Assembly (NCBI RefSeq): GCF_002854065.1
Contig: NZ_CP024154.1
Length of the DNA: 64,000 bases
Direction: 5' to 3' (one strand)
Source of the DNA: Escherichia coli
GTDB lineage: Bacteria > Pseudomonadota > Gammaproteobacteria > Enterobacterales > Enterobacteriaceae
Shown in pieces: positions 3,946-63,830 of this stretch; the first letter of the stretch is position 1; each line of letters begins with the position of its first letter. Under the pieces are notes generated by a model, which saw only the letters and a list, made by a program, of their open reading frames with translations, did not search any database and was not told the origin of the DNA. The position numbers and the translations under genes were made by a program.

Positions 3946-3962
3946 CAACGGAGGAAAACATC

Positions 3963-4388: not shown

Positions 4389-4434
4389 TTAACGGACGGG
4401 GCGGCAATGCCGCCCCTGTAAAGGAGACGAGAAC

Positions 4435-5248: not shown

Positions 5249-5745
5249 CTTCGGCTCCCGGCTGCCTGGCGGCATCCGGTCGTCAGGCCCGACTCCGACG
5301 GGCAGCTGCTGGCGCACCCGCCAGTCTCCGCCGAACCCGCTGGCGCGGTTTCGGGCTGCCGCTACGGTCCGATGCGTGAAAACCCGGCTTGCAGCGACCG
5401 TTCCGGTCGCGCCGCCCCTGTCGCGCCGTGACCTGCGCTCCCTGCACACCTGACGGTGTGTGAGGAAACTGCGCCTGATGGCGCAGCAGTCCTCCCTCCT
5501 GCCGCCACTCCTGCGGCCTGTTTCCCGCTGTGGACTTTCCGGGGGGCAGACGTAACCCCCTCCCGTTCCATCTGTCCAGGGTGAGATGCACCGGCCACAA
5601 AATTTTTAGCCATGAACCCGGCAAAAAATTTTGCGTCCGCCCCCGGACAGCTGCCCCGTGAGGCGGTAAACGGGCCCCCATCGGAAAGGTCCACTGCGGG
5701 GAGAAACCCCTGTGAAGTGGACGGCAGGAGGAGCTTTCGCTCCTC
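5249..5745 (+). repeat. repeat family B copy 1: about 500-bp hairpin-rich element, putative single-strand promoter/ssi
   Basis: Near-identical to 11592-12090 and partially to 14681-15010; multiple perfect hairpins (GCGACCG-TTC-CGGTCGC, ACACC-TGAC-GGTGT); ends about 70 nt before ssb. Confidence 0.6.
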
Positions 5746-5814
5746 TGAAGGGGCACATGAACGTCCCGTCGCCGGTATCCGGTTTATCTCACATCTTTCA
5801 GTCAGGAGGTTCTT

Positions 5815-6342
5815 ATGAGTGCACGTGGTATCAACAAGGTCATCCTCGTCGGGCGTCTGGGCAATGATCCGGAAGTCCGTTACATCCCCAACGGGGGCGC
5901 AGTGGCAAACCTGCAGGTGGCTACGTCAGAAAGCTGGCGCGACAAACAGACGGGGGAAATGAAGGAACAGACGGAATGGCACCGCGTGGTGCTGTTCGGC
6001 AAGCTCGCGGAAGTGGCTGGCGAATATCTGCGCAAGGGCGCGCAGGTCTACATCGAGGGGCAACTCCGTACCCGTAGCTGGGAAGATAACGGTATCACCC
6101 GTTACGTCACTGAAATTCTTGTTAAGACCACGGGCACCATGCAGATGCTGGGGAGTGCACCACAGCAGAACGCTCAGGCGCAACCGAAGCCTCAGCAGAA
6201 TGGGCAGCCACAGAGTGCTGACGCGACGAAAAAAGGTGGCGCGAAAACGAAAGGCCGTGGACGTAAGGCCGCGCAGCCCGAGCCTCAGCCGCAAACGCCG
6301 GAGGGGGAGGATTACGGGTTTTCAGACGACATCCCGTTCTGA
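5815..6342 (+). CDS. ssb: plasmid single-stranded DNA-binding protein
   Basis: OB-fold SSB N-terminus ([18 protein letters not shown]), Gly/Gln/Pro-rich linker and acidic C-terminal DDIPF tail; SD AGGAGG. Confidence 0.92.
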
Positions 6343-6393
6343 TCGGGCTGACTGTGACAACCGCCCCGCCCTGTGCGGGGCATCACCGGAGAT

Positions 6394-6633
6394 ATGAGGA
6401 TGAGCGAATATTTCAGAATACTTCAGGGACTGCCGGACGGCTCCTTTACCCGCGAACAGGCGGAAGCCGTTGCCGCACAGTACCGGAACGTCTTTATCGA
6501 GGATGATCAGGGAACGCATTTTCGCCTGGTTGTCCGCAATAACAGTGGTCTGGTCTGGCGTACCTGGAATTTTGAGGACGGTGCCGGGTACTGGATGAAC
6601 CATGCCATCCGTGATTTCGGGATTCTTAAGTAA
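6394..6633 (+). CDS. hypothetical small leading-region protein (about 79 aa)
   Basis: ORF with ATG at 6394/6400 and purine-rich upstream sequence. Confidence 0.45.
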
Positions 6634-6691
6634 GAGAGGTGCCGGACGCGCGAACGTCCGGCAGGACATAAGCAATTATAAGGGGATGATT

Positions 6692-8650: not shown

Positions 8651-8704
8651 TGAACAACCACACCGCCCCGCCGGAGACGGGGCGGCAGCAAGGGAGATAC
8701 CGTG

Positions 8705-9139
8705 ATGAAAACTGAACTGACCCTGAATGTATTACAGACCATGAGTGCACAGGAATATGAAGATATCCGGGCTGCCGGAAGTGATGAACGCCGTGAGCTG
8801 ACACACGCCGTGATGCGGGAACTGGATGCGCCGGACAACTGGACGATGAATGGCGAGTACGGCAGCGAGTTCGGCGGCTTTTTCCCCGTCCAGGTCCGTT
8901 TCACGCCTGCCCACGAACGTTTTCACCTGGCGTTATGTTCACCGGGCGATGTCTCTCAGGTCTGGGTGCTGGTTCTGGTGAATGCCGGTGGTGAGCCGTT
9001 TGCGGTGGTTCAGGTGCAGCGGCGGTTTGCACCGGAAGCTGTCAGCCATTCACTGGCACTGGCGGCGTCACTGGATGCGCAGGGGTACAGCGTTAACGAC
9101 ATCATTCATATCCTGATGGCGGAAGGAGGTCAGGCATGA
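8705..9139 (+). CDS. psiB: plasmid SOS inhibition protein B
   Basis: 144-aa product; position immediately upstream of and overlapping psiA; SD AGGGAGA. Confidence 0.85.
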
Positions 9140-9855
9140 GCGCACGTTCACGGGCACTGATCCCCCTCAGCGCAGAACAACAGGCCGCCATGCAGGCGGT
9201 GGCTGTCACAGAACAACGTCGTCGTCAGGGACGCACACTTTCAGCATGGCCTTATGCCACCGCTTTCTTTCGCTGCCTGAATGGCAGTCGCCGGATTTCG
9301 CTGACCGATCTCCGCTTTTTTGCCCCTGCGCTGACGAAGGAGGAATTTCATGGCAACCGTCTCCTGTGGCTGGCTGCCGTGGATAAACTGATTGAAAGTT
9401 TTGGGGAAGTCTGTGTTCTTCCCCTGCCATCCGATGCGGGGCACCGTCTGTTCCCGTCCCTGCCTTTTCGTGAAGGTGAGCGTCGTCGTCAGAAAACCAC
9501 GCTGACAGAGCAGAAATACAGCCGCCAGCGGGAACGTGAGGCAGAACGACGGGAACTGGAATACCAGACATGTTTTGCTCAGGCGCAGATTGACCTTGCG
9601 TTTCATACTCCCGCCACGGTCGGAAGCTGGTTGTCCCGCTGGTCTGGTGTTGTTGAGGAGCATGATCTGGAAACGATTTTCTGGGGGTGGTGCGGGCGTT
9701 TTCCATCACTGTCATCATTTGACCGGTTTTTCTGGCAGGAGGAACCACTCTGGCGGCTGATTTTTGAAGCCGGTGAGGCCGGTCGTGGTGCACCGGTACA
9801 GGTACGTGCACTTGAGCAGTGGATGATCCCGAACAAGCTGGAGAACGTAATATGA
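9136..9855 (+). CDS. psiA: plasmid SOS inhibition protein A
   Basis: 239-aa product, start overlaps psiB stop (ATGA); typical psiB-psiA pair. Confidence 0.85.
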
Positions 9856-10448
9856 TGAAATCAGACGAAAAATACCAGGTTCCCGCGTGGATGCGACCTC
9901 TGTTGCCGTTGCTCTGCAACACCGGGGGGAACGATCCGGAAGAACTGCTGAATGATACAGAAACCACTGCCAGTGCGAATGTTGTCCGTTATGTACTGAT
10001 AGTTGCTGTGCGGTCGCAGGTTGATCTGCTGCAGCTTCTGTACAGGAAAGGGCTGTTGCGCACAGAGATACCAGGTGGCTTTTCACCGGAAGAAGCGCAG
10101 GCACTCCTGGATAATCTGGTGCGCAGCCATATCAGCAGGGCGCTGTCGGGCGAGCGAATGGCAGCCCGTGACAGAAATGCCGATCTGGCCTGGATTGGAC
10201 AGCAACTGGTCGATGCCGCCTGGTTTGTCCGTGCCACACTGGAAGCGCATGGGATGAGCGTCGGAAATGAGAGCCCCCCTGCTCCGCCGGAGACAATGCC
10301 GGACATACAGACACGGGAACTGGTTATGTTGATCAAGCGACTGGCATCATCGCTGAAAGCGGTGAAACCCGACAGTAGCGTGGTGCGTGAAGCGCAGGAC
10401 TGGCTGTGCGACAGAAAACTTGTGGATATCACAGATATTCTCCGGTGA
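9852..10448 (+). CDS. hypothetical leading-region protein (198 aa)
   Basis: ATG 9852 overlaps psiA stop; SD GGAGAA upstream; no recognised motif. Confidence 0.5.
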   Translation: MMKSDEKYQVPAWMRPLLPLLCNTGGNDPEELLNDTETTASANVVRYVLIVAVRSQVDLLQLLYRKGLLRTEIPGGFSPEEAQALLDNLVRSHISRALSGERMAARDRNADLAWIGQQLVDAAWFVRATLEAHGMSVGNESPPAPPETMPDIQTRELVMLIKRLASSLKAVKPDSSVVREAQDWLCDRKLVDITDILR

Positions 10449-10566
10449 ACCAGACATGTATATTTTACGCAGGGACACGCCGATCATGATCGTTTCATAT
10501 CAGGGGTGGTCTGGAGGTCATGCGGCGTGTCCTCTGCACTCGCCGGAATAAGGAAGTCGCCGGCGG

Positions 10567-10892
10567 CTCCGCTTTTACCCGGCCATGCGGGGCATGGCCT
10601 TGTGGGTTTTCAGTTATGTGGCCGCCGTGTCGTGTGCGGGCTGTGCCGTGCCTCCATCGTAGCCGGGCTTCTGCGGGCGGGATGCAAGGTAAGATGAACC
10701 GCTGCGGTCACCCGGTCCCTCCTTCCCGTCTGCCGTGATTTTCCGGTCGTTCACCCGCTCAGATTTCGCGGTCTCACCCTCCAACTCCCGTCAGCCGTGC
10801 GCGTCGGGCTGCGGCTTTCCTTGCGCCCTTGCATCCCTGCAGGCCCGGCAAAGATGGAGGCACGGCACCGCCCGGTGTCGCAGAACATGTGA
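10567..10892 (+). repeat. repeat family A copy 2, putative single-strand promoter
   Basis: About 95 percent identical to 3620-3945; ends immediately upstream of the ardA SD. Confidence 0.6.
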
Positions 10893-10909
10893 CTATGGAG
10901 GATTCGGGA

Positions 10910-11410
10910 ATGTCTGTTGTTGCACCTGCTGTATACGTTGGAACCTGGCACAAATACAACTGTGGAAGCATCGCCGGACGCTGGTTTGACCTGACCACGT
11001 TTGATGATGAGCGCGACTTTTTCGCCGCCTGCCGTGCTCTTCACCAGGATGAAGCCGATCCTGAACTGATGTTTCAGGATTATGAGGGATTCCCGGGGAA
11101 TATGGCCTCTGAATGTCATATCAACTGGGCCTGGGTTGAAGGCTTCCGCCGGGCACGGGATGAAGGCTGCGAAGAGGCTTATCGTCTCTGGGTGGATGAT
11201 ACCGGTGAGACGGATTTTGACAGCTTCCGCGATGCCTGGTGGGGCGAGGCTGACAGTGAGGAGGCTTTTGCGGTTGAGTTCGCCAGTGATACCGGCCTGC
11301 TGGCTGACGTGCCGGAGACGGTGGCGCTCTATTTTGACTATGAGGCGTATGCGCGGGATTTATTCCTGGACTCCTTCACCTTTATTGACGGTCATGTGTT
11401 CCGTCGGTGA
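10910..11410 (+). CDS. ardA: anti-restriction protein ArdA (DNA mimic)
   Basis: 166-aa highly acidic protein (MSVVAPAVYVGTWHKYNCGSIAGRWFDL...); SD GGAGGA; leading-region position. Confidence 0.88.
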   Translation: MSVVAPAVYVGTWHKYNCGSIAGRWFDLTTFDDERDFFAACRALHQDEADPELMFQDYEGFPGNMASECHINWAWVEGFRRARDEGCEEAYRLWVDDTGETDFDSFRDAWWGEADSEEAFAVEFASDTGLLADVPETVALYFDYEAYARDLFLDSFTFIDGHVFRR

Positions 11411-11591
11411 TTTACTCCCCCGCTCCGGCGGGGGTATGGCCTGCCAGGCCGCCGGAAAACCCTGGCAGGCTTACGCCTGCCTGAAATGCAGGAGGGCCGC
11501 GCCTGCGGCGCTGCCCTTCCTGCCCGTCATGGTGTGAGGCATTTTTCTGTTATGTCGTTTCTGTTGTTCTGATTTCCGGAGGCGGGGACAC

Positions 11592-12090
11592 CTTCGGCTC
11601 CCGGCTGCCTGGCGGCATCCGGTCGTCAGGCCCGACTCCGACAGGCAGCTGCTGGCGCACCCGCCAGTCTCCGCCGAACCCGCTGGCGCGGTTTCGGGCT
11701 GCCGCTACGGTCCGATGTCTGAAAAACCAGGCTTGCAGCGACCGTTCCGGTCGCGCCGCCCCTGTCGCGCCGGAAACGGCGCTCCCTGCACACCTGACGG
11801 TGTGTAAGGCCACTGCGCCTGATGGCGCAGTTGTCTGCCCTTCCGCCGCCCCCCCTGCGGCCTGTTTCCCCGCTGTGGACTTTCCGGGGGCTGAAGCGGC
11901 CACAACACGTTTCAGCCGTCCAGGGGAGAGATGTACCAGCCACAAAACTTTTTGCCGCAGGCGTCAAAAACTTTTGCGTCTGCCCCCGGACAACTGCCCC
12001 GTGCCGTGGCAGTCGCTGCCCTATCGGAAAGGTCCACTGCGGGGAGAAACCCCGAAGAAGTGGACGGCAGAAGGGGCTTTCGCCCCTCCG
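11592..12090 (+). repeat. repeat family B copy 2, putative single-strand promoter
   Basis: Near-identical to 5249-5745; ends about 50 nt before ORF 12143. Confidence 0.6.
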
Positions 12091-12142
12091 GGGGAGCAAC
12101 CGGTCGGCCCGGCGACCTGATTCAGCAGAAGGAGACGTTTTC

Positions 12143-12577
12143 ATGACAGTCAGCAGCACGATTTCCGTTTTTTGCCGCGACGGGGTGTTCCGTACCGTTT
12201 ACTGCCACCTGCACGGTGAGCCGACCTGGAACGGTCGCATCCTGCATACCCACTATGCCACTGGTCAGCAGGCCGAAGCCCTGGTTGAACACGGTGATAT
12301 CCGTTGCCTCGGTCCCCGTTGCGACAAACCCGCCGGGCATACGCTTCAGAACCCGGTGGACGGTGTGACGGCTTATTACGGACGTGACAGTGGTTTCCGG
12401 ATGGACAGTGAGGCGCGTGAGTACCGTTCTTTCAGGGAGGCCATCGCCACGGAAAGCACTGAAGAGGTGCGCTTCCATTATGTGTTCATCGACGGCTACT
12501 GGAAGGTGATGTACCGCACGCCGGAAGGCTGGAAGATGAAGTCGCTTGCGCTGGCACTGCGCCGCTGTCCGAAATGA
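12143..12577 (+). CDS. hypothetical protein (144 aa) directly downstream of repeat B2
   Basis: SD AAGGAG 7 nt upstream of ATG; Cys/His-containing; rho-independent terminator hairpin downstream (about 12579-12606). Confidence 0.55.
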   Translation: MTVSSTISVFCRDGVFRTVYCHLHGEPTWNGRILHTHYATGQQAEALVEHGDIRCLGPRCDKPAGHTLQNPVDGVTAYYGRDSGFRMDSEAREYRSFREAIATESTEEVRFHYVFIDGYWKVMYRTPEGWKMKSLALALRRCPK

Positions 12578-12669
12578 AAAAAAGGCAGGGCGATAAACCC
12601 TGCCTCTCTCCGCCGCTGCTTCCCGGCCAGGAAGAGCGGCAGTCATCAACAACATAAGGAGAAATATTT

Positions 12670-12936
12670 GTGAGACCATCAATTATCTTTGCAACGGCTG
12701 AATATGTAAAGCGTCTGCGTGAAGAGTGCCTGCGGGAGAATAAACCCCTGCACCGCCATACCCGCTTCAGACGTCAGGAGCTGGCACAGGATGAGATTAA
12801 CCCGGACGTCCTGGCGATGAGCAGTCATATCGCCAGACGCTGCAGTAAGCAGAAGCGGGTGCGTATCCCCGCGATGAAAGCCAGCGAATGGGGCCACCTG
12901 CTCCGCGCGCTTGAAATTGAGCGGGTCTGCCACTGA
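12670..12936 (+). CDS. hypothetical small basic protein (88 aa, GTG start)
   Basis: ORF only; Arg/Lys-rich. Confidence 0.3.
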   Translation: MRPSIIFATAEYVKRLREECLRENKPLHRHTRFRRQELAQDEINPDVLAMSSHIARRCSKQKRVRIPAMKASEWGHLLRALEIERVCH

Positions 12937-13000
12937 TTAACCCTTGCCGTCTGCCTGTGCAGGCGGCAGGATACGTTCAGACATCTCACCAGGAGGAACC

Positions 13001-13951
13001 GTGAGTAAGAAGAAAAACACCACAACGCCCACGCCGCATGATGCCGCGTTCCGGTCGTTCCTGGCGAATCCCGACGTTGCCAGGGATTTTCTGGAACTGC
13101 ATCTTCCTGCGGAGCACCGGCAGTTGTGCGACCTGTCCACGCTGAAGCTGGAACCCGCCACCTTTGTTGAGCCGGACCTGCATCAGTACGCCAGCGATAT
13201 CCTCTGGAGCGTGAAAACCACCGGGGGTGAAGATGGTTATGTTTATACGCTCATCGAGCACCAGAGCACAGAAAATCTGTACATGCCTTTTCGCATGTTA
13301 CGCTACAGTGTGGCGGCGATGCAGAGACATCTGGAGCAGCACAAAACGTTGCCACTGGTGATTCCGGTGCTGTTCTATCACGGTGAGCGCAGCCCGTACC
13401 CGTACAGCATGAACTGGCTGGACTGTTTTGAGAATCCGGCACTTGCGGCTAAAATATACACAAAGCCGTTTCCGCTGGTTGATATCACTGTCGTTGATGA
13501 CAATGAAATCATGAACCATCGCCGGATGGCCGCACTGACGCTGCTGATGAAGCATATCCGCCATCGTGACATGATGGAGCTGCTGGACAAACTCCCGCAG
13601 GTCATGGTGGAAATTTCAGATGAACAGGTGCGTGTTCTGATTCATTACATCGTTAACGCAGGGGACTCTGTATCACCGGAATTTATGCGGGCGCTGGCTG
13701 AGCGTCTGCCGCAGCATGAGGATAAACTGATGACTATCGCAGAACGTCTTGAGCAAAAAGGTCGCCAGGAAGGCAGGATGGAAGGACGCATGGAAGGACG
13801 CATGGAAGGACGCATGGAAGGACGCATGGAAGGAGCGCTTGAAAAAGCCCTGGCTATTGCGTGCCAGCTTCAGAAAATGGGGATGACGCCGGAGCAGATT
13901 AAGCAGGCTACCGGACTTTCCGATGACGAACTGAAGAACATCACTCACTGA
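13001..13951 (+). CDS. Rpn-family (YhgA-like, transposase_31) PD-(D/E)XK recombination-promoting nuclease
   Basis: N-terminal YhgA-like motifs (HDAAFRSF, ASDILW, YTLIEHQS); SD CAGGAGGA before GTG 13001; C-terminal tail carries (EGRM)n repeat; terminator hairpin at about 13963-13990. Confidence 0.75.
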   Translation: MSKKKNTTTPTPHDAAFRSFLANPDVARDFLELHLPAEHRQLCDLSTLKLEPATFVEPDLHQYASDILWSVKTTGGEDGYVYTLIEHQSTENLYMPFRMLRYSVAAMQRHLEQHKTLPLVIPVLFYHGERSPYPYSMNWLDCFENPALAAKIYTKPFPLVDITVVDDNEIMNHRRMAALTLLMKHIRHRDMMELLDKLPQVMVEISDEQVRVLIHYIVNAGDSVSPEFMRALAERLPQHEDKLMTIAERLEQKGRQEGRMEGRMEGRMEGRMEGRMEGALEKALAIACQLQKMGMTPEQIKQATGLSDDELKNITH

Positions 13952-19714: not shown

Positions 19715-20110
19715 ATGGGGGTAAAGAAAATCGTTATGCTGGCTATTTTAGTCAGCTTTGTGGCGGGATGTGCGCCATTACATCCTTCAAATTGCCATAA
19801 AACTACAGCCCTGGGTAGTTGCAGTTCAGGACGTTGGGATGATCAGGATGAATGGGGGGAGCAGGCACGGGGAATCAGGGATGCAATTAATGCTAAACTT
19901 GATGATCCGCAAAAATGGAAAAGGAAAAAATGCAGGTTGCATATGGAATTCTCCCGGGATGGCACGGCGTTAAAAATATCAACCAGTAATGGCGATAAAG
20001 CCTATTGCGAAGCGATAAAGTCAGCAGCCCATAAAGCTAAATTCCCGGCCTTCAACAATCCGGAAGTTTATAGAGATTTTCAAAAATCCGGCTTTGACAT
20101 GCGCGGTTAG
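19715..20110 (+). CDS. putative lipoprotein (131 aa)
   Basis: Signal peptide with lipobox (LVSFVAGC); SD GAGGAG upstream. Confidence 0.5.
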   Translation: MGVKKIVMLAILVSFVAGCAPLHPSNCHKTTALGSCSSGRWDDQDEWGEQARGIRDAINAKLDDPQKWKRKKCRLHMEFSRDGTALKISTSNGDKAYCEAIKSAAHKAKFPAFNNPEVYRDFQKSGFDMRG

Positions 20111-20497
20111 CTCCACGACATATCTGTAGGGCTAACAGAAGACTGTCAGGTTGGCTGATTACTACACTGGAACCTGAGGTACTTTGCCTCAGGTTATGTT
20201 GACATACTCAAAAATAGATTCTTACATTATCCCGGTAACGGCGTCTTTCATCGGCCTGCCAGTTACCATCAATGGTATTGGTACCCTCATTCTTTCTGTC
20301 TGTGATGTTAATAAGGGCAAAATTAATCAGCATGTCTGGCAGGATCTGGGAATTCATACCAATATCCATAGAAGTGAATCTATTACGAACGTGGGGAACC
20401 CTGGCACCATTTTTTGTGCTGCCCATATTTGTTTTCATGTATAATTCATAATCAAAGCGTTCATCCTGATTTAGCTTAACTGATTAAAATCCGTAGA

Positions 20498-25810: not shown

Positions 25811-26083
25811 GCGATCCCAGGGAGAGTGGGTGGCTCTGGCCCGGAGGAAGTCTCTTTTCAACTAACGTTACCAGAATATCGTTATATTCACCTGATCGCA
25901 ATCTGTTCGTTACAGTCTATTGTTCCGGGAGTAGCGATATCGCCTGAAACAAGTATAATCAGCAAGTTAGCCTTGTCTGGAGACTTACCTTCGCATCAAT
26001 CCATTTGCCGTATTTTCGTAAAATTCAACAGGAAATATTCAACGGGAGTGAGAGAACTGCTGTCCGGGGAGGAGGTACAGACG

Positions 26084-26117
26084 CAAAAAAACCGACTGGT
26101 GAGGCCGGTTTTTTTGC
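26084..26117. terminator. bidirectional terminator-like hairpin (copy 2)
   Basis: AAAAAAACCG-ACTGGTGAG-GCCGGTTTTTTT, nearly identical to copy 1. Confidence 0.5.
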
Positions 26118-26431
26118 GATTCCGGATCGAAGTTGGTAGCCCTGACCGGAAGATAACTGCCTATAACTGACTATGAAATAATACGGCTGAAATAATATTT
26201 CTGCAAGCACAGTATAAGTATATACTCGGTGTGTCAGCTTTGAGGCACGTTCTTTCCGGCATATCGTTCACCGGGATGAACAGGTTGCAAGTCCTGGCCA
26301 AAACATCAGGTGGTGCTGGTTTTGGTGCTCTGGCCGGAGAAGAACTGTCTATAACTGACACTATAGAAAACGTGGCGACAGGCAATGTAAGGGCAAACCA
26401 CGGTGTTCTTTCTCCATTGATGGAGAAGCGG

Positions 26432-29483: not shown

Positions 29484-29664
29484 GATGTGTCCTTGTTTTT
29501 TATTATTTTGCATTTCAGAAAATAACACGATGCCTGCAGCCCGGAAAACAGATGTGTGCACACGTAGTCACTTTCCGGCTTTATTTCTGTCCCTGACACA
29601 AAATACGTGGTGGCATGAAAAGGATTGTGGCGGACAGGAAAACGATTAGAATAGCGGCGGGCGC

Positions 29665-29958
29665 TTGAGGCTGTATGCCGAAAGCGTTTTGTGGACGGCA
29701 TGTAGCAGAAAGCCCCAGGCGATTTTTTTATCAATCAACCCAGGGCCCACTGTAATGCCTCAACAACATTATAGTAGCCCGATGACGGCCGAAAGGCAAT
29801 GGAGGGGCTGCGATGCCACAACGAACGTTTTTAATGATGTTAATCGTCGTCTGTGTGACGATACTGTGTTTTGTCTGGATGGTGAGGGATTCGCTTTGCG
29901 GATTTCGTATCGAGCAGGGAAATACGGTGCTTGTGGCAACGTTAGCCTACGAAGTTAA
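29665..29958 (+). CDS. pndC: pndC (mok-like) overlapping leader reading frame of the pnd locus
   Basis: Reading frame that overlaps and ends inside pndA in a different frame, as in hok/mok loci. Confidence 0.5.
   Translation: MRLYAESVLWTACSRKPQAIFLSINPGPTVMPQQHYSSPMTAERQWRGCDATTNVFNDVNRRLCDDTVFCLDGEGFALRISYRAGKYGACGNVSLRS
29690..29780 (-). ncRNA. pndB: expected position of PndB (Sok-like) antisense RNA; not delimited from sequence
   Basis: Placed by analogy to hok/sok architecture only. Confidence 0.25.
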
Positions 29959-43878: not shown

Positions 43879-44588
43879 CGTAATGTACCGGCAGAGGTGA
43901 TGACTGCCCGGCTGGACGGGTCAATCCGGGTGATGGTGATGTTTCCCAGACTGTCGCCTTCCCGTACTGCCCAGGCACTGCCCTGCCAGCGGATCCAGGC
44001 CATGCCTTTCTCCACCGACATGATTTTCATGCCCTGCAGAGGTGAAGGCAGGGTTTTCGCAGGCTGTCTGTTATTCCCGGTCGGGGCTGGCAGTGCTCCC
44101 TGCATCTGTAGGGTATGCACCTGCTTACGGGTCTCCTCAAGCAACTGACGGGTTTCCTGTGCCCAGGCCTCATCCTTCTGAATGGCGTTACTGAGGGTGG
44201 TGATACTGTCCTTCAGCATGGTCAGGGTGCGCCGGATTTCCTCATCCCGTCTGTCCAGCTCTGCTTTCAGATCACGGGCAAGTTGCTGCATGTCTGCCTG
44301 TGGGGTAACCGGCGGTGCGGGCATGTTGTTTCCGCTCCCGGACTCCGTCATGGTCATGGGCTCTGCCCAGCTCTCAGCAGCGGGCGGTGTGACAGCAAAG
44401 CCTGCATCTGCAGGGGGCTCTGAGGGTGTCCGCAGAAACTTGTACCAGATGGCGACCAGGATGATGAGGGCACAGCCGGCCCAGACCGGCAGGCTGTATC
44501 CCATATACTGGCGTTTCAGGAAGGATTTGCCGGATGCCGGTGCCGTCGTTTCGCCAAAGCTGCCGGGATCTTCATGTTCGTTTTTCAT
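43875..44588 (-). CDS. TraP-like protein (by position)
   Basis: 237 aa, one TM segment and coiled-coil-like region. Confidence 0.5.
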   Translation of the reverse strand: MKNEHEDPGSFGETTAPASGKSFLKRQYMGYSLPVWAGCALIILVAIWYKFLRTPSEPPADAGFAVTPPAAESWAEPMTMTESGSGNNMPAPPVTPQADMQQLARDLKAELDRRDEEIRRTLTMLKDSITTLSNAIQKDEAWAQETRQLLEETRKQVHTLQMQGALPAPTGNNRQPAKTLPSPLQGMKIMSVEKGMAWIRWQGSAWAVREGDSLGNITITRIDPSSRAVITSAGTLR

Positions 44589-56221: not shown

Positions 56222-57043
56222 TTACCAGGGGGATAACGGAACCCTGAATAACGCAGTGGGTAATATTTTTCCTGTTATCAGATATTCTGCCTGTGCCGGA
56301 GTGAGTGTTACGGCGCGAACAGGGATATCCGGAGATATTTTTCGGGCCATCTGAAACCAGCCTTCTTTTTCTATATCCATTCTGGCCGGATATAACGAAA
56401 GTACCGGATAAATAATGGTGTTATTAATTTCTTTTTTCTGCCTGAGCAGAACGCCGCAATATTCTCCGGAATGCGTTCCGGCAAACGGAAAACCATGCCA
56501 GAGAATAATGTCCATATTCTCGCGGGCTGAAATAATCCTGCAGAATATCTCCTGTGTGGCTGGCCAGTCTCCCGGACGATACAGTGGATAATGCACCCTG
56601 CCGTTCAGCCATTCCGGACTGAGATAAAACCAGTCAGCCAGTGCTGCAAGAATCTCCCCGGTCAGATAGTCAGTGAGTCTGTCCGGCTCCCGGAAGACGG
56701 CAGGGCGGATATTCCAGGGGGCCAGTAATGCAGCCATCGTTGTTGCGCTGATATCATGTGCCTGCATGATGTGCTCCATCCTGCTGAGAAGACGGCGGAC
56801 GATGTTATCTGCAGGAAGAAACATTTCACTTAACGCGTCTTCGACCAGGATACGCGTCAGGTCAGAGACGGAAAGAGAAAGCTGTTCGCTCATGATACCA
56901 AGGGCATCCCTGACTCCCTGCGGATAACGAACCTGCAGGGGTGTGGACTGCAGCTGGCGATGACTGAGCAGGCATTCGCAAATTCGCTCCCTGTCCAGGG
57001 AGAGCATCATACGGGCGGCAATACCTGTGCTGTCAGTTTTCAT
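56222..57043 (-). CDS. hypothetical protein (273 aa), TraE-like by position
   Basis: ORF; no tyrosine-recombinase motifs. Confidence 0.4.
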   Translation of the reverse strand: MKTDSTGIAARMMLSLDRERICECLLSHRQLQSTPLQVRYPQGVRDALGIMSEQLSLSVSDLTRILVEDALSEMFLPADNIVRRLLSRMEHIMQAHDISATTMAALLAPWNIRPAVFREPDRLTDYLTGEILAALADWFYLSPEWLNGRVHYPLYRPGDWPATQEIFCRIISARENMDIILWHGFPFAGTHSGEYCGVLLRQKKEINNTIIYPVLSLYPARMDIEKEGWFQMARKISPDIPVRAVTLTPAQAEYLITGKILPTALFRVPLSPW

Positions 57044-57515
57044 TTCACCTCCATGCGGGTCAGCGTGTTTTGTTCATAAATTGAGTCTAAAGAGAGTGTT
57101 TTTTAAACGGAAGCGAGTTATTTCGATCGTTATGATCGAGTGTGTTTCAAGAGTGTTTGCAACTCTGTTTTAAGGGCGAATGAAAAGGATTCGGACAGGA
57201 GGTGACTGAGCATGCTGGCATGAGATATTGCCAGTCCCCGGGTTTCTGCACGGGTTTCAAGGTCGAAATCGTGCAGTGTCACGACAAACAGCCCGTTTCT
57301 GCACCCGACAGTTGCAGGGTAGGGAACAAAATAAGGGGAAATTTTGCTGGTCTGTTTACGCCTGGCATCGAGTTTGCTGACCAGCTGATATGCCCGGAGA
57401 TTTATTTCATTTGCCGTGCCAGTGGGAGCGTCATATCAAATCATCTCCAGACCAACACAAAATTACGCCTGTGGTAACGGTGTTTTCTCTGTGTATGCCT
57501 ATCAGATGTGAGTCC

Positions 57516-58877
57516 CTAGCTGGCTTTAACAATGTAGTTGAATGCAATGTTTTTGGGACGCATTTCTGTGGTACTCCCCTGTGCCCAGTATGGCATACCA
57601 CTATGATGCCCTTTCAGCCATCCGCCACGTTCGTGATAGACGCCTGATTGATCGGCCTGATAACTCAGGAGCTGTCTGTTCCGATCACCATCAAGTCCCT
57701 TCCCGTTATCCCAGCCACGGATAAAAACACCGCGCAGATCGGGTAACTTACAGCTAGGATAAGCACGGGCAAGCTGAGGATACCGGGAACAGGAAAACGA
57801 CTGGCCGTTCATCAACAGATAGCCTTGTGGAGGAGTGGCAGATGGCCACGGGATAGGGCTTCCCACAGGGTAGGATTCAAAGCCAACCCACACACCGGAT
57901 TGGCACGAAAGTATTGCCCCTTTGCTGTCGCGGCCTACAAGTCCATCTGGTGAACACTTTGTATTTGCTACGGCTGTTTTATCCAGCTGTAAATACTCAC
58001 CTGTGGAAAGGCGACCGTCAGACCGGACTGTCCCCCCACTGACTTTTCCTCCTTTGATTTCCCCTGTGGTTATAATTCCTTTACCACCGACTGCGCGTAT
58101 CCACTGGCTGTCTGTCATCGTAAAACCGCCACCATAGGTGATGTTCTTCCAGCCTTTATCATTTTTGGTGATTAACCAGCCGTTTTCGCTTGTAACATCA
58201 CCTTTCAGTGTTGCACTTTGTCCATTGACGTTTCCTGCATTGTTCAGGTTGTTCCCTCCCATATTGATGGCCGTGTTCATCTGGTTCAGCTCCGGTCGTC
58301 CCGGTACCTGAAAGCGATACAGGCGATCGCTTTCCTGCAGGTCATCACCCATCATTACGATGGCGATGTGCCCGCCATTGCAGCTGAGTCCATAGTCGCC
58401 GGGTTTATCTGTCCATCCACCAAAAACACCGGTTGCTGTGCCATTTTTTCCTATAAATCCGCCCAGACCGGGGAGCAGGCTGGCGATACTGCGCAGGGCA
58501 TCGTCTTTGATATTCTCCCCTCCGGTGGAGCAGGTCAGGGCCTCCAGACGACCGGTACTCGTGTTACGACGGATGCCGGTGGTATAACTCTGCCCAAAGG
58601 GCGAGCGGTTAAGACCCTTCAGATATCCTTTCCGGATTAACTCATCCGCCGTGAAGGTGGCAGGAAGCGTTCCGCTATGCAGGCGGGCATTGTTATCGGC
58701 GATGTAGGTCCTGGCTGCAGTATTGTAGGCATCTGCATGAAATGCGGCGCTCTGGTTGCGCATTTCATTCAGGTAGTCTTCAATGTAAGACCAGAACAGC
58801 GGCATGAGCAGGCTGATGACAACCAGTCCTCCCAGAATTTCAAGAAGTGCAAAACCTTTATCGTTGTCTTTTTGCAT
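57516..58877 (-). CDS. pilV: PilV thin-pilus minor pilin/adhesin
   Basis: Prepilin-like N-terminus (KGFALLEILGGLVVISLL); SD GGAGGGA before ATG 58877; shufflon-type site within the 3' part. Confidence 0.8.
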   Translation of the reverse strand: MQKDNDKGFALLEILGGLVVISLLMPLFWSYIEDYLNEMRNQSAAFHADAYNTAARTYIADNNARLHSGTLPATFTADELIRKGYLKGLNRSPFGQSYTTGIRRNTSTGRLEALTCSTGGENIKDDALRSIASLLPGLGGFIGKNGTATGVFGGWTDKPGDYGLSCNGGHIAIVMMGDDLQESDRLYRFQVPGRPELNQMNTAINMGGNNLNNAGNVNGQSATLKGDVTSENGWLITKNDKGWKNITYGGGFTMTDSQWIRAVGGKGIITTGEIKGGKVSGGTVRSDGRLSTGEYLQLDKTAVANTKCSPDGLVGRDSKGAILSCQSGVWVGFESYPVGSPIPWPSATPPQGYLLMNGQSFSCSRYPQLARAYPSCKLPDLRGVFIRGWDNGKGLDGDRNRQLLSYQADQSGVYHERGGWLKGHHSGMPYWAQGSTTEMRPKNIAFNYIVKAS

Positions 58878-58894
58878 AGTCGTTCCCTCCGGTA

Positions 58895-59521
58895 TTACCA
58901 AAGGCCACCGGGATAAAAAGTAAATGCGTACTGTGACGCGCAGAGAAACGGCCCAAAGGGAAGTTCTCTGGTAATGCGTCGTTGTCCGTTACACCACAGA
59001 TAAAGTAAGGCTCCGCCTGCTGCCGTTGCGACAATCCAGGGGATGTCTCCCGGCGGGGACCAGATGGCAATACCGGCAATCAGAAAAACATCGCCCAGGC
59101 CTATGGTTTCTGTTTTCCTGCGGTAAGAGGTGTATTGCCTGAACAGAAGCAACAGCAGGAACCAGAACCCTGCACTGCACAGGCCTGTCAGCCAGTCTCC
59201 CTGCCAGAGACGAAATGCGCTGCCGCTTATCAGATACATGATGGTGAAGGGCCGGGGAAGACGGCAGGATGCAGCATCCGTCAGGGTCATCAGTGTCATA
59301 CATCCGGTCATTATCGTCATAAACAGCACCCCGACAGCGCTGTCATTCTGATAAAGACGCAGGATAATGGCGGCAGCTGCAAGCATCCCGCTCATCAGCG
59401 CCAGCCCATGGTGAGGGGGGCGGGCATTCATCCGGGAGAGTCGATAGCGACTCATCTGAACGGCCAGACACTGTATTACCACGGTTATGGCGACCAGCAG
59501 TGCCGGGATTATCTGGAGCAT
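58895..59521 (-). CDS. pilU: PilU prepilin peptidase (A24 family)
   Basis: 208-aa polytopic membrane protein between pilT and pilV. Confidence 0.75.
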   Translation of the reverse strand: MLQIIPALLVAITVVIQCLAVQMSRYRLSRMNARPPHHGLALMSGMLAAAAIILRLYQNDSAVGVLFMTIMTGCMTLMTLTDAASCRLPRPFTIMYLISGSAFRLWQGDWLTGLCSAGFWFLLLLLFRQYTSYRRKTETIGLGDVFLIAGIAIWSPPGDIPWIVATAAGGALLYLWCNGQRRITRELPFGPFLCASQYAFTFYPGGLW

Positions 59522-59536
59522 GGCAGTTCTCCCGGA

Positions 59537-60022
59537 CTAACGTCCCTGCATGTAAGCGCTGTAAATCTGCCGGGCGTATTTCATCCGGCGGTGAGTGTTA
59601 CTTTTACTGAAGCCGGCGTTATAACTGCCGAGGCATTCCCAGTTTACGCCGCATCGCTGAAAATGCCGGGCGAGGATCCATGCTCCGGTCTGAATATTCA
59701 GGCAGACATTATTCAACAGATCTTTCTCACTCCGGATAATGCCCATTTTTTTCAGCCCGGGAATATGTGTGGAGTTAATCTGCATTATCCCGTAATCGGT
59801 ACTGATAATTTTTCCTCTGTCATTCCTGTTATGATTAATGGCCCGGGGATTCAGACTGCTTTCCCTGCGGGCAATAATTTTGAGTAATCCTGGATCAATG
59901 GAATAACGTTTTCCGGCGGTAATAAAACAACGATCATATTGTTTGTCCTGTGGGGATGCCTGTGCGGAAGGAAGTGAGCATAACAGTGAAAAAATCACTG
60001 TCAGGATAAATAACCTGTTCAT
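59537..60022 (-). CDS. pilT: PilT lytic transglycosylase
   Basis: Signal peptide and SLT-like motif (GIMQINSTH). Confidence 0.8.
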   Translation of the reverse strand: MNRLFILTVIFSLLCSLPSAQASPQDKQYDRCFITAGKRYSIDPGLLKIIARRESSLNPRAINHNRNDRGKIISTDYGIMQINSTHIPGLKKMGIIRSEKDLLNNVCLNIQTGAWILARHFQRCGVNWECLGSYNAGFSKSNTHRRMKYARQIYSAYMQGR

Positions 60023-60066
60023 ACAGTGACCTTAAATAAAGCGCCCGGGCGGGCGCTGATGAATGA

Positions 60067-60603
60067 TTAACTGTTGGTTTCCAGTTTGATAGTAGTTTTA
60101 TCTGCGTTACATACTGTAGACGGGTCAACTTTATTCGTCACATTGCCGTTGATTTTTGTAAACATGGATGAACTGCGCAGGCTGGTGACCAGATCAATAC
60201 AGTTTTTCTTCGGCACATTGCTGGATTCAATAACGTAGGAGTATTTATCTGAACTGACTTTGATGGTTACCGCACCACCCCAGGCATTTTTCGCCTTATT
60301 ACCACCGGCGATCATATCGGCAGGCAGGCCACCACTTTCGGTCAGGATTTTGACGTAGTCAGTACCTGTATACTGCCCCTGGAATTTCTGGGCTTTCATT
60401 TTGGTGGCGATTGTCTGCAGGTTTTTGAGTTCCTTCTGGTTGTCTGAAGAGGACAGGGTATCGGACATCAGTCCCATCACGGCACCAATAACAATGGCAG
60501 CGACGACCAGAACACCGAGAACTTCCAGCAGGGTCATGCCTTTATCATCGTTCTGAAGGTGACGAATATTATGTTCTGAATACGAAGAGGTTATGACGCT
60601 CAT
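60067..60603 (-). CDS. pilS: PilS type IV (thin pilus) major prepilin
   Basis: Leader followed by G/MTLLEV and hydrophobic helix. Confidence 0.85.
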   Translation of the reverse strand: MSVITSSYSEHNIRHLQNDDKGMTLLEVLGVLVVAAIVIGAVMGLMSDTLSSSDNQKELKNLQTIATKMKAQKFQGQYTGTDYVKILTESGGLPADMIAGGNKAKNAWGGAVTIKVSSDKYSYVIESSNVPKKNCIDLVTSLRSSSMFTKINGNVTNKVDPSTVCNADKTTIKLETNS

Positions 60604-60664
60604 ATTAGCTCCTGAGATTGGTAAAACAGAATTTGGATCGAGGGGAATATAAAGGATGCTGTGT

Positions 60665-61759
60665 TTACTGCTTCAGCATGTCACTGATGCCGTAAATGGC
60701 ACTGACCATATTGATGATGAAGAGAAATACCAGCAGACCTGATATAGCAGTAATAATAATGCCGCTTTTTCTGACATTCTTTTTTGCTTCTTCCAGCCAG
60801 CGGTCTGCATAAAGCGCCATACTGGCAACACTGTCCTCCCTTTCTGAATTTAAAAGAAGATTATTCACACAGGATTTTGACGGAAAGTCATAACCACAGT
60901 TTTTCATGGCCAGTGCCAGTGACTGACCGGATAAGACATTTTTTCTGATAGCACTTATTCGTGATTTTAACCATCGGTTATGTTCTGCATGTTTTTCTAT
61001 TCTGGTAAGGGCATGAGATAAAGGAATATTTATCTGCAGCATGGATGAAATATTAAAAAGGTAATTCACGCCATGGAAAGTCTGATACAGGGACCATGGC
61101 GGGATGCGATCAAGATACCGTCGTCGGGGACCGGTATACAGACTGAATGACATCCTGATGAGAATTGCCAGCAGCAGCAGTCCTGCCAGCAGCCACAAAC
61201 CATAACCGATAACCAGTCCGGAGGATTTGGCCAGAATGACCATCTGTACTGACCAGCGTTCTTCCGGTGCAAAGGCGCTGATCATCGGAATAACCCGGGT
61301 ATGAACGTTATACATATTCACCACACAGAGTGTCAGCAGGATGAGCGGATAGAGGCAGACACTCACCAGACTGCTAATCATCTCCTGTCGTCCTTTTGCC
61401 GTTTTGACGACCTGAAACATGGCTTCAGCGATATCACCTCGTTCTTCACCGTTACGGATCAGGGCAATTTCATCTTTGGGTACCCAGTCCTTCAGGGCCG
61501 GAGAGAGCTGACCACTGCTGCGTATGCTGGCGATACAGTCTGTCGCCAGAAAATACAGGCCGGACTGCCCTTTCTTTTTACCAAAATCCGTTTCCACATC
61601 GCAGATGAACTCCAGTGCCCGCATAACCGGTGTGCCGTCCCGGATCATGCCTGCAAGGGACTCGTAAAACGTAGTCCGCCTGAACGTCTTTTTGCCCAGC
61701 CAGCGGTTAAGGCCGGACAGTTCCAGTTCCGTATTGTTGAGTCTTTCCAGAATTTTCAT
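60665..61759 (-). CDS. pilR: PilR inner-membrane platform protein (GspF/PilC-like)
   Basis: 364 aa polytopic protein downstream of the pilQ ATPase. Confidence 0.8.
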   Translation of the reverse strand: MKILERLNNTELELSGLNRWLGKKTFRRTTFYESLAGMIRDGTPVMRALEFICDVETDFGKKKGQSGLYFLATDCIASIRSSGQLSPALKDWVPKDEIALIRNGEERGDIAEAMFQVVKTAKGRQEMISSLVSVCLYPLILLTLCVVNMYNVHTRVIPMISAFAPEERWSVQMVILAKSSGLVIGYGLWLLAGLLLLAILIRMSFSLYTGPRRRYLDRIPPWSLYQTFHGVNYLFNISSMLQINIPLSHALTRIEKHAEHNRWLKSRISAIRKNVLSGQSLALAMKNCGYDFPSKSCVNNLLLNSEREDSVASMALYADRWLEEAKKNVRKSGIIITAISGLLVFLFIINMVSAIYGISDMLKQ

Positions 61760-61760
61760 A

Positions 61761-63269
61761 TCAGTGCAGCAGCGTATAGCTGTCCTCGTCTACAGGGGAT
61801 ATGTAATGCGCAGCCAGCGGATCGACCTGACCACTGTTGATTTTGCCCAGCAGGTGCTGATTTCGTGTCATACCGCCGAGCTCCCGGTGCCAGTAGGTTT
61901 TTGCCTCAATCCGGCCTTTTTCCCGGTAAATCTGGAAAAACTTCGCATCCGGGGAAATCACTTCTGCAATGACGGTCCGGCCGTTCACTCCACGCCAGCA
62001 GTGTGGGCAGCCGTTATGGTTACGAAGATACACGGCATCGGGCTGGCAGAAGTTTTCCACCAGGCGTCGTTCTTCATCCGTCCGGGAGCTCTCCACCTCA
62101 TGCCAGGGGAGGCGGCAGTGGGGACATATCACCTGAACCAGACGCTGGCTGAGCAGGCCGATAAATAACTGCGGATCTGCAATCATCCTTGCCTGAACGC
62201 CCTCCATTTCCAGACGCTCAAGAATATTTATCGGGTCGTTAGCATGAAGGGTGGTCAGCATCAGGTGACCGGTCATGGCGGCTTTTATCGCCGTGATGGC
62301 GGAGGCATGGTCACGTATCTCCCCGTTCAGGATAGCGTCAGGATCAAGGCGCAGGGCGGACTTAACAGAATCGACCCAGCCCTGAGCGGTATCCATAACG
62401 GCCGTCTGAATTGCACCGGGGATACGCCCCTCTGGTGGTGATTCTATTGTGAACAGACGTCGCCGGGGGAGCAGGATCCCTCCGGTATCGTTGAAGCCAT
62501 ACTGTTCCAGATAGGCGGCAGAAGCCGTCCTCAGCGTGGTGGATTTTCCGGAACCGGTGGGGCCAGAGAGGATCACGATGCCCTCCGGTCGCTGCAGCAT
62601 CCTTCGGACAGCGCGCTCCTGCTCAGGGTGATACCCCAGCATACTGAATGTCGGTATATGCTGACTGTCATCCTTGATCAGACGCAGTACGGCATAGAGT
62701 CCGCCCACACACGGATAGTGGGAGTAGCGCGCACCAAACAGTCCGGCCAGTTTCAGGAATCTTTCAGCCAGACGGGCATCCTGGGGGACACCGGGATCAA
62801 ACTGTGTTCCCTTTATGACGTCAGTCATTCCGGAATAGGTGGCCCCCAGTAATTCCAGCCCCTCATCTTTTCTGACGATATCGAGCAGCTCCAGCTCTCC
62901 GTGGACACGGGCCTCCAGATACGTGAAATCCGTACTGTCACGCCCCGGCGTGATGTGAAGATCTGAGGCGCTGAGGGTGGCCGCATGGCTGATATACCCG
63001 AGCATTTTTTGCTGTACGGGGTTAATTCCGTTTTCCACCCCGGAAATGACCGTCTCCTGCCTGAGTCGGGCGATCACATCAAGTGTGGTGAACTCAAACG
63101 GGGATACTTTACCCGGATAGCGGGAGCACAGGCGGGTCAGATAATCCTGGACGGCACGAAGGTGTTTTTTTCCTTCCACCACTCTGACATGAATTTGTCC
63201 TGTTTTATCTGTATCAACAACCACGTATTCCAGAATGTCATCAGGTGGCTGGTCTGCAGGTGCCAGCAT
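61761..63269 (-). CDS. pilQ: PilQ pilus assembly ATPase (GspE/PilB family)
   Basis: Walker A SGPTGSGKSTTL; tetracysteine motif (CPHC...CPHC). Confidence 0.85.
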   Translation of the reverse strand: MLAPADQPPDDILEYVVVDTDKTGQIHVRVVEGKKHLRAVQDYLTRLCSRYPGKVSPFEFTTLDVIARLRQETVISGVENGINPVQQKMLGYISHAATLSASDLHITPGRDSTDFTYLEARVHGELELLDIVRKDEGLELLGATYSGMTDVIKGTQFDPGVPQDARLAERFLKLAGLFGARYSHYPCVGGLYAVLRLIKDDSQHIPTFSMLGYHPEQERAVRRMLQRPEGIVILSGPTGSGKSTTLRTASAAYLEQYGFNDTGGILLPRRRLFTIESPPEGRIPGAIQTAVMDTAQGWVDSVKSALRLDPDAILNGEIRDHASAITAIKAAMTGHLMLTTLHANDPINILERLEMEGVQARMIADPQLFIGLLSQRLVQVICPHCRLPWHEVESSRTDEERRLVENFCQPDAVYLRNHNGCPHCWRGVNGRTVIAEVISPDAKFFQIYREKGRIEAKTYWHRELGGMTRNQHLLGKINSGQVDPLAAHYISPVDEDSYTLLH

Positions 63270-63371
63270 AAAATCTCCTTACGGGCAGCGGTACCCGGAA
63301 ACGATTTTTTTGTGATTAAGGGCCGGGGGAATAATCTGTTCCGACAGCCGGCTGTAAATGGCGGCACTGAG

Positions 63372-63830
63372 TCAGGGTTGTAGTGTTGTTCTGATACCAT
63401 TTTGTTCAAGGACAACACTGTCAGTGGTGATCTTTTCCACGCGGAATGTGGTGCCGGGAATGTGTTGCCCTTCTTTTACATCAGCAGTTTGTCCGCCCGG
63501 CAGTTGTATCCTGGCGGTTATCTGGGGGTGAACTCCGGATATCTCTGTCAGCCGGGGAATACCGGTAATGGGGGCAGGGGTATCTGTCGTGACGGCTGAA
63601 CTGCTTTCCTGTGAATGCACAGGCTCAGCTGGTTCTCCCTGCTCCAGGGTTCTGAGTTCATGTCGCACCTTTTCTCTTGCCAGCATGGCTTCATACAGTG
63701 CAGTTTCTTCCTGAATCTGTTCCACCTGGAGTTGCCGGTTATTCTGTTGCATGTTGCTGATGGTGCTGGCCGCGACCGTTGTCGGCAGGATCAGGACGGA
63801 AAGCAGAAGAGCTTTTGTTTTACTGGACAT
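63372..63830 (-). CDS. pilP: PilP-like pilus biogenesis protein
   Basis: 152 aa with signal peptide; position upstream of pilQ. Confidence 0.6.
   Translation of the reverse strand: MSSKTKALLLSVLILPTTVAASTISNMQQNNRQLQVEQIQEETALYEAMLAREKVRHELRTLEQGEPAEPVHSQESSSAVTTDTPAPITGIPRLTEISGVHPQITARIQLPGGQTADVKEGQHIPGTTFRVEKITTDSVVLEQNGIRTTLQP

Follow-up and report, generated by a model that had tools for sequence, protein, structure and literature searches.

Can the PilV tip adhesin of an Escherichia coli plasmid still exchange its C-terminal segment when its gene carries a shufflon-type recombination site, with neither a recombinase nor a set of alternative segments apparent nearby? This question was raised by a preliminary description of 64 kb of a larger plasmid (64,000 nucleotides, hereafter the window), which proposed that the adhesin tip is locked in one configuration. 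We conclude, with a probability of roughly 0.88, that this I-complex plasmid, whose backbone is of the IncB/O type, carries a fossil shufflon in which pilV was locked by illegitimate deletion. This is ordinary decay of an already known system and involves no new mechanism.

The pilV gene and its single sfx site

The gene in question, pilV (57516-58877, minus strand), is an intact ORF of 453 codons plus stop, recognized from the ORF list, Pfam searches and sibling annotation as encoding the minor pilin and tip adhesin of the thin (type IVb) pilus. Its product is WP_001168171.1, which is called PilV in sibling plasmids. The N-terminus, MQKDNDKGFALLEILGG, looks like a prepilin leader, with a G/F cleavage site and E at +5; it matches Pfam N_methyl weakly (E 0.072) and NCBIfam GspG below the cut-off. 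Pfam places Shufflon_N at residues 34-328 (E 1.8e-57 and 7.7e-43) and a Collar domain at residues 339-386 (E 9.3e-13), with a sfx-encoded CQSGVW motif between them, such that the join of the constant and variable parts falls at the sfx site.

The sfx site itself lies at 57888-57906 on the minus strand, where the reverse complement is exactly GTGCCAATCCGGTGTGTGG, a 19-bp sequence with the 7-bp core GTGCCAA and a 12-bp right arm. It is identical to 'repeat-g' of the IncK2 shufflons (PMC5350095), and its position is syntenic with the sfx bounding the same C-terminal segment in the IncK2/Z plasmid pSH287-2. Read in frame within pilV it encodes C-Q-S-G-V-W precisely where the Shufflon_N constant region ends, so that the earlier recognition of a 19-bp shufflon repeat at the constant/C-terminal junction proved correct in both identity and placement. 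When both strands of the 64-kb window were scanned, GTGCCAATCCGGTNNNTGG was matched with zero mismatches at 57888-57906 alone, and hand arithmetic gives about 3e-5 chance matches for an exact pattern of 16 specified bases in 128 kb. Two or more inverted sfx repeats were thus not found in the window; a second, sfx-like match at 43918-43936 (plus strand) has three mismatches and is at chance level (0.93 expected). The surviving site is probably still present solely because it is coding sequence for CQSGVW.

Beyond CQSGVW, the fixed variable segment (57516-57887, minus strand) supplies 123 amino acids plus the stop and contains the phage-tail-collar domain. In the comparison with known shufflon segments suggested earlier, this segment proved 100% identical to the 'phage tail protein' ORF of an invertible segment of pSH287-2. 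Judged by eye and not by direct alignment, none of the seven C-terminal ORFs of the R64 shufflon resembles the collar-type segment; these seven do include an A-type counterpart of its convergent partner ORF. At 95% identity or more, the collar-type segment is found in 407 plasmids.

The surroundings of pilV are those of an I-complex thin-pilus system of the R64 pil type, comprising the pilQ ATPase, pilR, the major pilin pilS, the pilT transglycosylase, the pilU peptidase and pilV, and adjoining tra genes of the Dot/Icm-like MPF_I type. The upstream neighbor in the operon is the prepilin peptidase gene pilU (58895-59521, minus strand; ORF and sibling annotation). Every ORF from pilP to pilV in the window is intact and has the expected length, and the pil ORFs across 57516-63830 agree in size and order with those of annotated siblings and of R64.

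Relics and deletion junctions between pilV and traE

Downstream of pilV, the first tra gene after the former shufflon is traE (56222-57043, minus strand), an ORF that is annotated in siblings as 'conjugal transfer protein TraE' and matches the position of traE in R64, in line with the tra gene noted here earlier. No rci gene lies between pilV and traE. The intervening spacer of about 470 bp (57044-57515) had been described as non-coding DNA devoid of rci and alternative segments. The absence of a working rci and of working segments holds; the spacer is not anonymous DNA, being built of an rci relic and a cut-back alternative segment.

The rci relic (57208-57402, minus strand) was delineated by tblastn, nucleotide identity and PGAP annotation, the last labeling it 'integrase, incomplete, missing N-terminus and C-terminus'. 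Its 65 codons correspond to residues 274-338 of the 374-residue Rci and begin directly past the RYTH motif, leaving the relic without the entire catalytic domain and without the C-terminal end. In tblastn, 61 of the 65 residues are identical to intact Rci (E 3e-35), and at the nucleotide level the relic is 99% identical to the rci genes of IncK2/Z plasmids. A tblastn search of the whole window with intact Rci recovered this catalytically dead fragment and no other Rci-like match, which bears out the reported lack of a nearby rci. A search of NCBIfam gave no match for the relic or for traE.

Next to it lies the relic of a convergent A-type alternative C-terminal ORF (57402-57508, plus strand), detected by tblastn and collinear at the DNA level with positions 8219-8328 of the stretch of pSH287-2 used for comparison (L003). 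These 107 bp hold the final 35 codons and the stop, the 5' part and its own sfx having been deleted. The translated relic is 100% identical to residues 81-116 of the A-type ORF of pSH287-2 and 69% identical to residues 82-117 of R64 PilVA. Apart from this relic, no invertible segment with an alternative pilV 3' end was found. The GTGCCAG at 57416-57422, formerly taken for a degenerate repeat, is ordinary coding sequence of the A-type relic (..F-A-V-P-V-G-A..) and is unchanged in intact relatives.

Deletion end points were derived from local pairwise alignment and exact string mapping against pSH287-2. The larger junction (junction 2, 57400-57401) connects the interior of rci to the interior of the A-type ORF, mapping to L003 6517 and 8218-8220, and lacks 1,700 bp relative to pSH287-2. 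Neither end of this deletion is at a sfx, one being inside rci and the other inside the A-type ORF; the 2-bp microhomology (AT) at the junction, away from any sfx, indicates that the deletion was illegitimate and not Rci-mediated. At junction 1 (57200-57213), pairwise alignment revealed about 13 nt of filler, GGTGACTGAGCAT, in place of about 174 bp of pSH287-2 that include the rci 3' end, the rci stop and adjoining spacer. This filler is absent from three intact rci variants, among them the 390-aa IncK2/Z variant and R64, and its interpretation as an alternative rci 3' end was rejected because neither of these two contains it. A 10-nt part of it recurs within traE at 56961-56970. The true ancestor at junction 1 may have differed from pSH287-2. 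Beyond the junction, the native rci-traE spacer is unchanged (57044-57199, identical to L003 6001-6156). A scan of 56900-58000 gave no promoter, and its three terminator-like hairpins are within chance expectation.

These observations are best explained by an ancestor in which pilV was followed by invertible segments bounded by 19-bp sfx sites, then by rci and traE. Most probably, illegitimate, microhomology-associated deletions took the first 273 codons of rci and every sfx except one, along with all other segments and half of the one to which pilV was joined at the time; the rci 3' end was lost in a further small deletion. The constant region of pilV would thereby have been left permanently fused, via an inert sfx, to one collar-type segment, and all thin pili would then bear one identical adhesin tip. 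We infer both this order of the two deletions and that the pilus is still made.

Related shufflons and the spread of the deletion

The window shares with the IncI1 plasmid R64 the gene order pilU-pilV-(shufflon)-rci-traE-traF and a sfx with a 7-bp core, a 12-bp arm and a CQSGxW reading across the site. R64, however, has four segments (A-D), seven sfx and a 384-aa Rci, whereas the window has one segment, one sfx and the 65-codon relic; moreover, the variable triplet GTG of the window sfx is not among the R64 repeats. Closer relatives are the IncK2/Z plasmids pSH287-2 (NZ_MG299151) and pB16EC0268-1 (CP088807), which have intact shufflons and are about 99% identical to the window at the nucleotide level in traE, the spacer, the rci fragment, the collar/A-type segment and the pilV constant region. 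In these shufflons too, a repeat-g sfx bounds the collar/A-type segment; unlike the window, they possess a full 374-aa rci and several segments, with at least four sfx in the stretch of pSH287-2 scanned. Overall the window lacks about 1.9 kb that is present in these intact relatives. The comparisons also drew on records NC_005014 and NC_017665.

Other reduced shufflons also differ from the window. According to Archer et al. (2011, PMC3032704), the I-complex plasmid pRK1 of E. coli W has neither rci nor a shufflon; like the window it has traE directly after pilV, with no rci and no repeat-flanked segments. Its tra backbone is R64-like (IncI1-type), its spacer contains a TnpB-family fragment where the window has the rci relic, and the 430-aa PilV of pRK1 is not the protein encoded in the window. 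The different backbone and relics rule out a common lineage and mark pRK1 as an independent loss. The minimal one-segment shufflons of pO26-CRL125, pO111-CRL115 and the Salmonella Typhi pil island (PMC3817090) likewise represent a reduced PilV switch, but they keep rci and two inverted sfx and can still alternate two tips, which the window locus should be unable to do.

The spread of the deletion was assessed with an 80-bp probe across junction 2 (57362-57441). Exactly 132 of 72,556 PLSDB plasmids contain it (Escherichia 103, Shigella 22, Klebsiella 4, Salmonella 2 and Citrobacter 1), of which 129 are typed as conjugative; they include plasmids of Shigella sonnei, S. flexneri and S. dysenteriae as well as pMS7163B, which has been studied experimentally. 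Close relatives of the plasmid number roughly 260. The identical junction is also present in 96 of 5,426 complete E. coli genomes, and its recurrence in both sets points to one ancestral event. The window locus thus belongs to an IncB/O-backbone lineage with an rci::A-segment deletion, for which we found no explicit account of rci or shufflon loss in the literature. As the window is part of a larger plasmid, the absence of rci beyond it is argued from siblings. The complete sibling pMS7163B (84,078 bp), 99.7% identical to window positions 41832-64000, contains over its whole length one sfx and the same rci relic, and neither an integrase gene nor any other Rci-like match. At least in this sibling, rci and further segments do not reside elsewhere on the plasmid, and the proposed lock is upheld in window and sibling alike by one surviving sfx and no recombinase.

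Alternative explanations and consequences for mating

Could the locus be an assembly artifact, in which short reads across repeats collapsed a multi-segment shufflon? Such mis-assembly is known (Brouwer et al. 2015, as cited in PMC5350095), but a collapse would join at sfx repeats and would not be expected of the unrepeated rci, whereas the junctions here are inside rci and the A-type ORF and are shared by 132 independent plasmid records as well as by 96 complete genomes; junction positions and recurrence effectively refute this reading. That Rci itself made the deletion between sfx sites, as a regular end product of the shufflon, is very improbable. Near-identical IncK2 plasmids do differ in repeat number from 2 to 8 (PMC5350095), suggesting that the recombinase or the repeats drive segment gain and loss; yet no sfx-like core was seen at the deletion end points in pSH287-2, and a 2-bp junction microhomology is typical of illegitimate recombination. 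Equally improbable is a switch that still works, through Rci from elsewhere on the plasmid or from a co-resident I-complex plasmid and a distant or degenerate sfx partner. Cells often contain more than one I-complex plasmid, and the three-mismatch sequence at 43918 might be offered as the partner. However, this sequence is 14 kb distant and within a tra gene, so that an inversion reaching it would break up the tra region; pilV has no alternative C-terminal ORF left for fusion; and the window and pMS7163B each have one true sfx. In R64, Rci works on inverted sfx pairs in cis. Lacking both Rci and a second site to pair with, the locus is predicted to be incapable of inversion.

More weight, albeit still a low probability, attaches to the lock being one step in decay of the whole thin pilus, with spread by surface mating and disuse of pilV and the other pil genes. 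In pMS7163B, whose locus is identical, liquid mating into K-12 J53 is poor (about 2e-6), and surface mating is unchanged in pilS and pilT mutants (PMC10286972); for pRK1, also rci-less, the authors argued that the thin pilus is not made (PMC3032704). Against such decay, the pil ORFs are intact from pilP to pilV in the window and from pilI to pilV in the full pil operon of pMS7163B, and the same PilV accession recurs in siblings from four genera. Further, the liquid mating used a K-12 recipient only: its low frequency fits a tip unmatched to J53, and could equally reflect a wholly non-functional thin pilus.

Under the preferred reading of a locked pilV on a pilus that is still made, the same adhesin tip on every thin pilus would fix recipient choice in liquid mating. 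This expectation is by analogy with R64, as summarized in PMC5350095 and PMC6361801, and with the TP114 (IncI2) study, in which rci deletion locks pilV and single-variant derivatives transfer recipient-specifically in broth, one PilV variant giving one recipient profile (Allard et al. 2022, PMC9045228). The TP114 mutants are the engineered equivalent of the present locus; they are laboratory-made and keep all segments and sfx, whereas the loss in the window lineage is natural, irreversible, inherited and widespread.

A speculative and rather unlikely extension is that loss of switching represents specialization and not neutral decay, a widely disseminated resistance-plasmid lineage of E. coli and Shigella having fixed a phage-tail-fiber-like tip directed at a surface structure that is common in its natural hosts and absent from K-12. 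Were this true, recipient breadth would have been traded for efficiency, and the lock would help explain why the lineage has spread and why its liquid mating is poor in laboratory strains. In practical terms, annotation pipelines describe this gene as 'shufflon system ... PilV' though the system is dead, and any inference of recipient range or expectation of assembly heterogeneity here should allow for a lineage with one fixed tip. That tip may account for the low frequency at which pMS7163B transfers in liquid, and the lineage provides a naturally occurring single-variant PilV with which receptors could be mapped.

The surviving sfx site and the PilV tip

The minus strand of the window bears the distal portion of an I-complex thin-pilus operon, with pilP (63372-63830), pilQ (61761-63269), pilR (60665-61759), pilS (60067-60603), pilT (59537-60022), pilU (58895-59521) and pilV (57516-58877) as intact ORFs of the expected sizes, followed by traE (56222-57043, minus) and then by traF, traH, traI and traJ. 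The reverse complement of 57888-57906 in pilV is exactly GTGCCAATCCGGTGTGTGG, which is translated in frame as C-Q-S-G-V-W and marks the boundary between the Shufflon_N constant region (aa 34-328) and the C-terminal segment as delimited by Pfam. This 19-mer is the "repeat-g" of IncK2 shufflons (Seiffert et al. 2017, PMC5350095), and the repeat consensus given in the preliminary description was thus correct. A scan of the whole 64-kb window with the pattern GTGCCAATCCGGTNNNTGG, allowing up to 3 mismatches, recovered it as the sole exact sfx, the second match (43918, 3 mismatches) being at chance level (0.93 expected); the presence of a single sfx in pilV is thereby confirmed. The site has probably been retained since it is coding sequence.

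The C-terminal segment (57516-57887, minus) contains a Phage Tail Collar domain (aa 339-386, Pfam). The preliminary description had proposed comparison with known segments: in the intact IncK2/Z plasmid pSH287-2 (NZ_MG299151), one segment bounded by repeat-g contains two convergent ORFs, and one of these encodes exactly the same 129 C-terminal residues (CQSGVW followed by 123 aa). By eye, none of the seven R64 shufflon C-terminal ORFs resembles this collar segment, and they do include a relative of its partner, the A-type ORF. As 407 plasmids contain the collar segment at >=95% identity by tblastn, whether silent or joined to pilV, and as it is identical in pSH287-2, it is a normal member of the I-complex repertoire. 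Further tblastn matches, at 40-65% identity, are to tail-fibre proteins encoded on phage-like plasmids from E. coli, Salmonella, Citrobacter, Arsenophonus and Yersinia pestis, a similarity that points to receptor-binding modules common to thin-pilus adhesins and phage tail fibres.

Relics of rci and of a segment between traE and pilV

With 57044-57515 as query against 72,556 plasmids, query positions 171-358 matched "site-specific integrase" genes with identity up to ~99%. We mapped this spacer onto pSH287-2 (locus L003), where 212 bp separate traE from rci (374 aa) and sfx-bounded segments lie between rci and pilV; the spacer of the window resolved into five parts. The native traE-proximal spacer (57044-57199, identical to L003 6001-6156) ends at junction 1, where a filler of ~13 nt (57200-57213) replaces ~174 bp including the rci 3' end. 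An rci fragment on the minus strand follows (~57214-57401; 57208-57402 by tblastn), corresponding to Rci residues 274-338 (61/65 identical, E = 3e-35) and labeled by RefSeq PGAP as "integrase; incomplete; missing N-terminus and C-terminus". At junction 2 (57400-57401), marked by a 2-bp AT microhomology, 1,700 bp (L003 6518-8217) are skipped, comprising the first 273 rci codons, three sfx, an entire segment and, of the A-type ORF, the 5' two-thirds; the last 35 codons and stop of this ORF remain (57402-57508, plus). The rci relic starts immediately past the "RYTH" motif, which we take to hold the catalytic tyrosine, and the catalytic domain is hence wholly lost. The A-type relic matches the pSH287-2 ORF annotated "prepilin, shufflon protein A" at 100% identity and the C-terminus of R64 PilVA at 69%; it converges with pilV, whose stop lies 7 nt off, as in the intact segment. 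The GTGCCAG at 57416-57422, formerly read as a degenerate sfx fragment, is coding sequence of this relic (part of F-A-V-P-V-G-A) and is unchanged in intact pSH287-2. The ~470-bp spacer described as non-coding does lack a working rci or segments, but it is built of their relics. Ten nucleotides of the filler (57203-57212, TGACTGAGCA) recur in traE at 56961-56970, 240 bp distant, which may be due to chance (odds roughly 0.1) or to a templated insertion made in the course of repair.

The claim that no rci lies nearby held: tblastn with the 374-aa Rci found only the relic in the window. As the window is part of a plasmid, we assembled the complete sibling pMS7163B (CP026855, 84,078 bp), which is 99.7% identical to 41832-64000, with collinearity extending over most of the remainder; its locus is exactly that of the window, with the same 65-residue relic, one full sfx and no annotated integrase in its 84,078 bp. 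Sampled full-spacer records had one matching place each in the plasmid search, which still detected distantly related rci at ~76% nucleotide identity, and this speaks against a second rci of that identity or higher.

Origin and spread of the deletions

No sfx is present at either deletion end, and the deletions are therefore illegitimate; Rci-mediated deletion between sfx sites is contradicted by these junctions away from the sfx cores. Assembly collapse of an ordinary shufflon is excluded by the junction positions and by the same junctions recurring in 132 independent records. An 80-bp probe across junction 2 (E below 1e-20) matched exactly 132 plasmids, from Escherichia (103), Shigella (22), Klebsiella (4), Salmonella (2) and Citrobacter (1), with 129 typed as conjugative; they make up about half of the 262 plasmids covering >=80% of the pilV-traE region. 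The full spacer is present in 96 of 5,426 complete E. coli genomes. Because the junction is identical in all carriers, the sequences indicate one ancestral deletion event followed by dissemination. MOB-suite assigns the locked-locus siblings L001, L005 and L011 to IncIγ/K1, IncI1/B/O or IncK2/Z, reflecting either replicon exchange on one transfer backbone or unstable I-complex typing.

Elsewhere, identity to pMS7163B falls to 93-96% at 1-13027 (leading/maintenance region), which suggests a mosaic backbone, and the window lacks, at ~20031-20342, the sul2-strA-dfrA14-strB resistance island that pMS7163B carries between trbC and the relaxase gene (61477-65728). At the Rfam gathering threshold, the window also matches sok antitoxin RNA (29659-29815, plus, 124.7 bits) and AgrB antisense RNA (26083-26170, minus, 47.7 bits); these correspond to the RNA components of the hok/sok-type and dinQ-like (dqlB) type I toxin systems that siblings have annotated. 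Eighty traE-rci spacer matches fall on chromosomes of complete E. coli genomes, those listed having intact rci (for example NZ_CP082097.1 3332403-3332919 and NZ_CM142772.1 925654-926170), and may represent integrated I-complex transfer regions.

A locked adhesin tip

The locus thus retains one inert sfx, with the recombinase, partner site and alternative 3' end all gone, and inversion of pilV is impossible. This supports, with its anatomy corrected, the earlier proposal that the tip is locked in one configuration, the collar segment having happened to occupy the expressed position at the time of deletion. An Rci acting in trans would have no substrate at the locus. The thin pilus is probably still built, given the intact pilP-pilV ORFs and the complete pil operon of pMS7163B; every pilus would then bear the same adhesin, which would fix recipient specificity in liquid mating. 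The shufflon sets recipient specificity in R64 and pCT, as summarised in PMC5350095 and PMC6361801, and TP114 yields a single detectable pilV variant upon rci deletion, its single-variant derivatives showing recipient-specific transfer in broth (PMC9045228). Liquid transfer of pMS7163B to E. coli J53 is reported at only ~2.17e-6, a frequency insufficient for transposon screening, and mutation of pilS or pilT left its surface mating unaffected (PMC10286972); these data fit either a tip not recognising K-12 or a pilus out of use. General decay of the pil system, which is compatible with a locked tip, we regard as unlikely.

Functionally, the locus is comparable to a laboratory rci-deletion mutant or a "fixed-mode" shufflon. 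Three of four testable features of a functional shufflon (recombinase, at least two inverted sfx, alternative segments) are absent, which places it outside that class, unlike the reduced yet functional one-segment shufflons (PMC3817090). Natural loss of rci and shufflon was already on record, as in the E. coli W plasmid pRK1 (NC_017665; PMC3032704). That loss is separate, on an R64-like backbone unlike the window's lineage; there a TnpB-family gene fragment (7110-7235) replaces rci between traE and pilV, and an IS element may have been involved. We found no account of the present deletion in the IncB/O-backbone lineage, a weak negative as subscription journals lay outside the search. The decay state seen here is ordinary: it is already catalogued, affects a well-known system and is widespread in public plasmids. 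The locus is mainly of use as an annotation caveat and as a naturally occurring single-adhesin variant for work on receptors.
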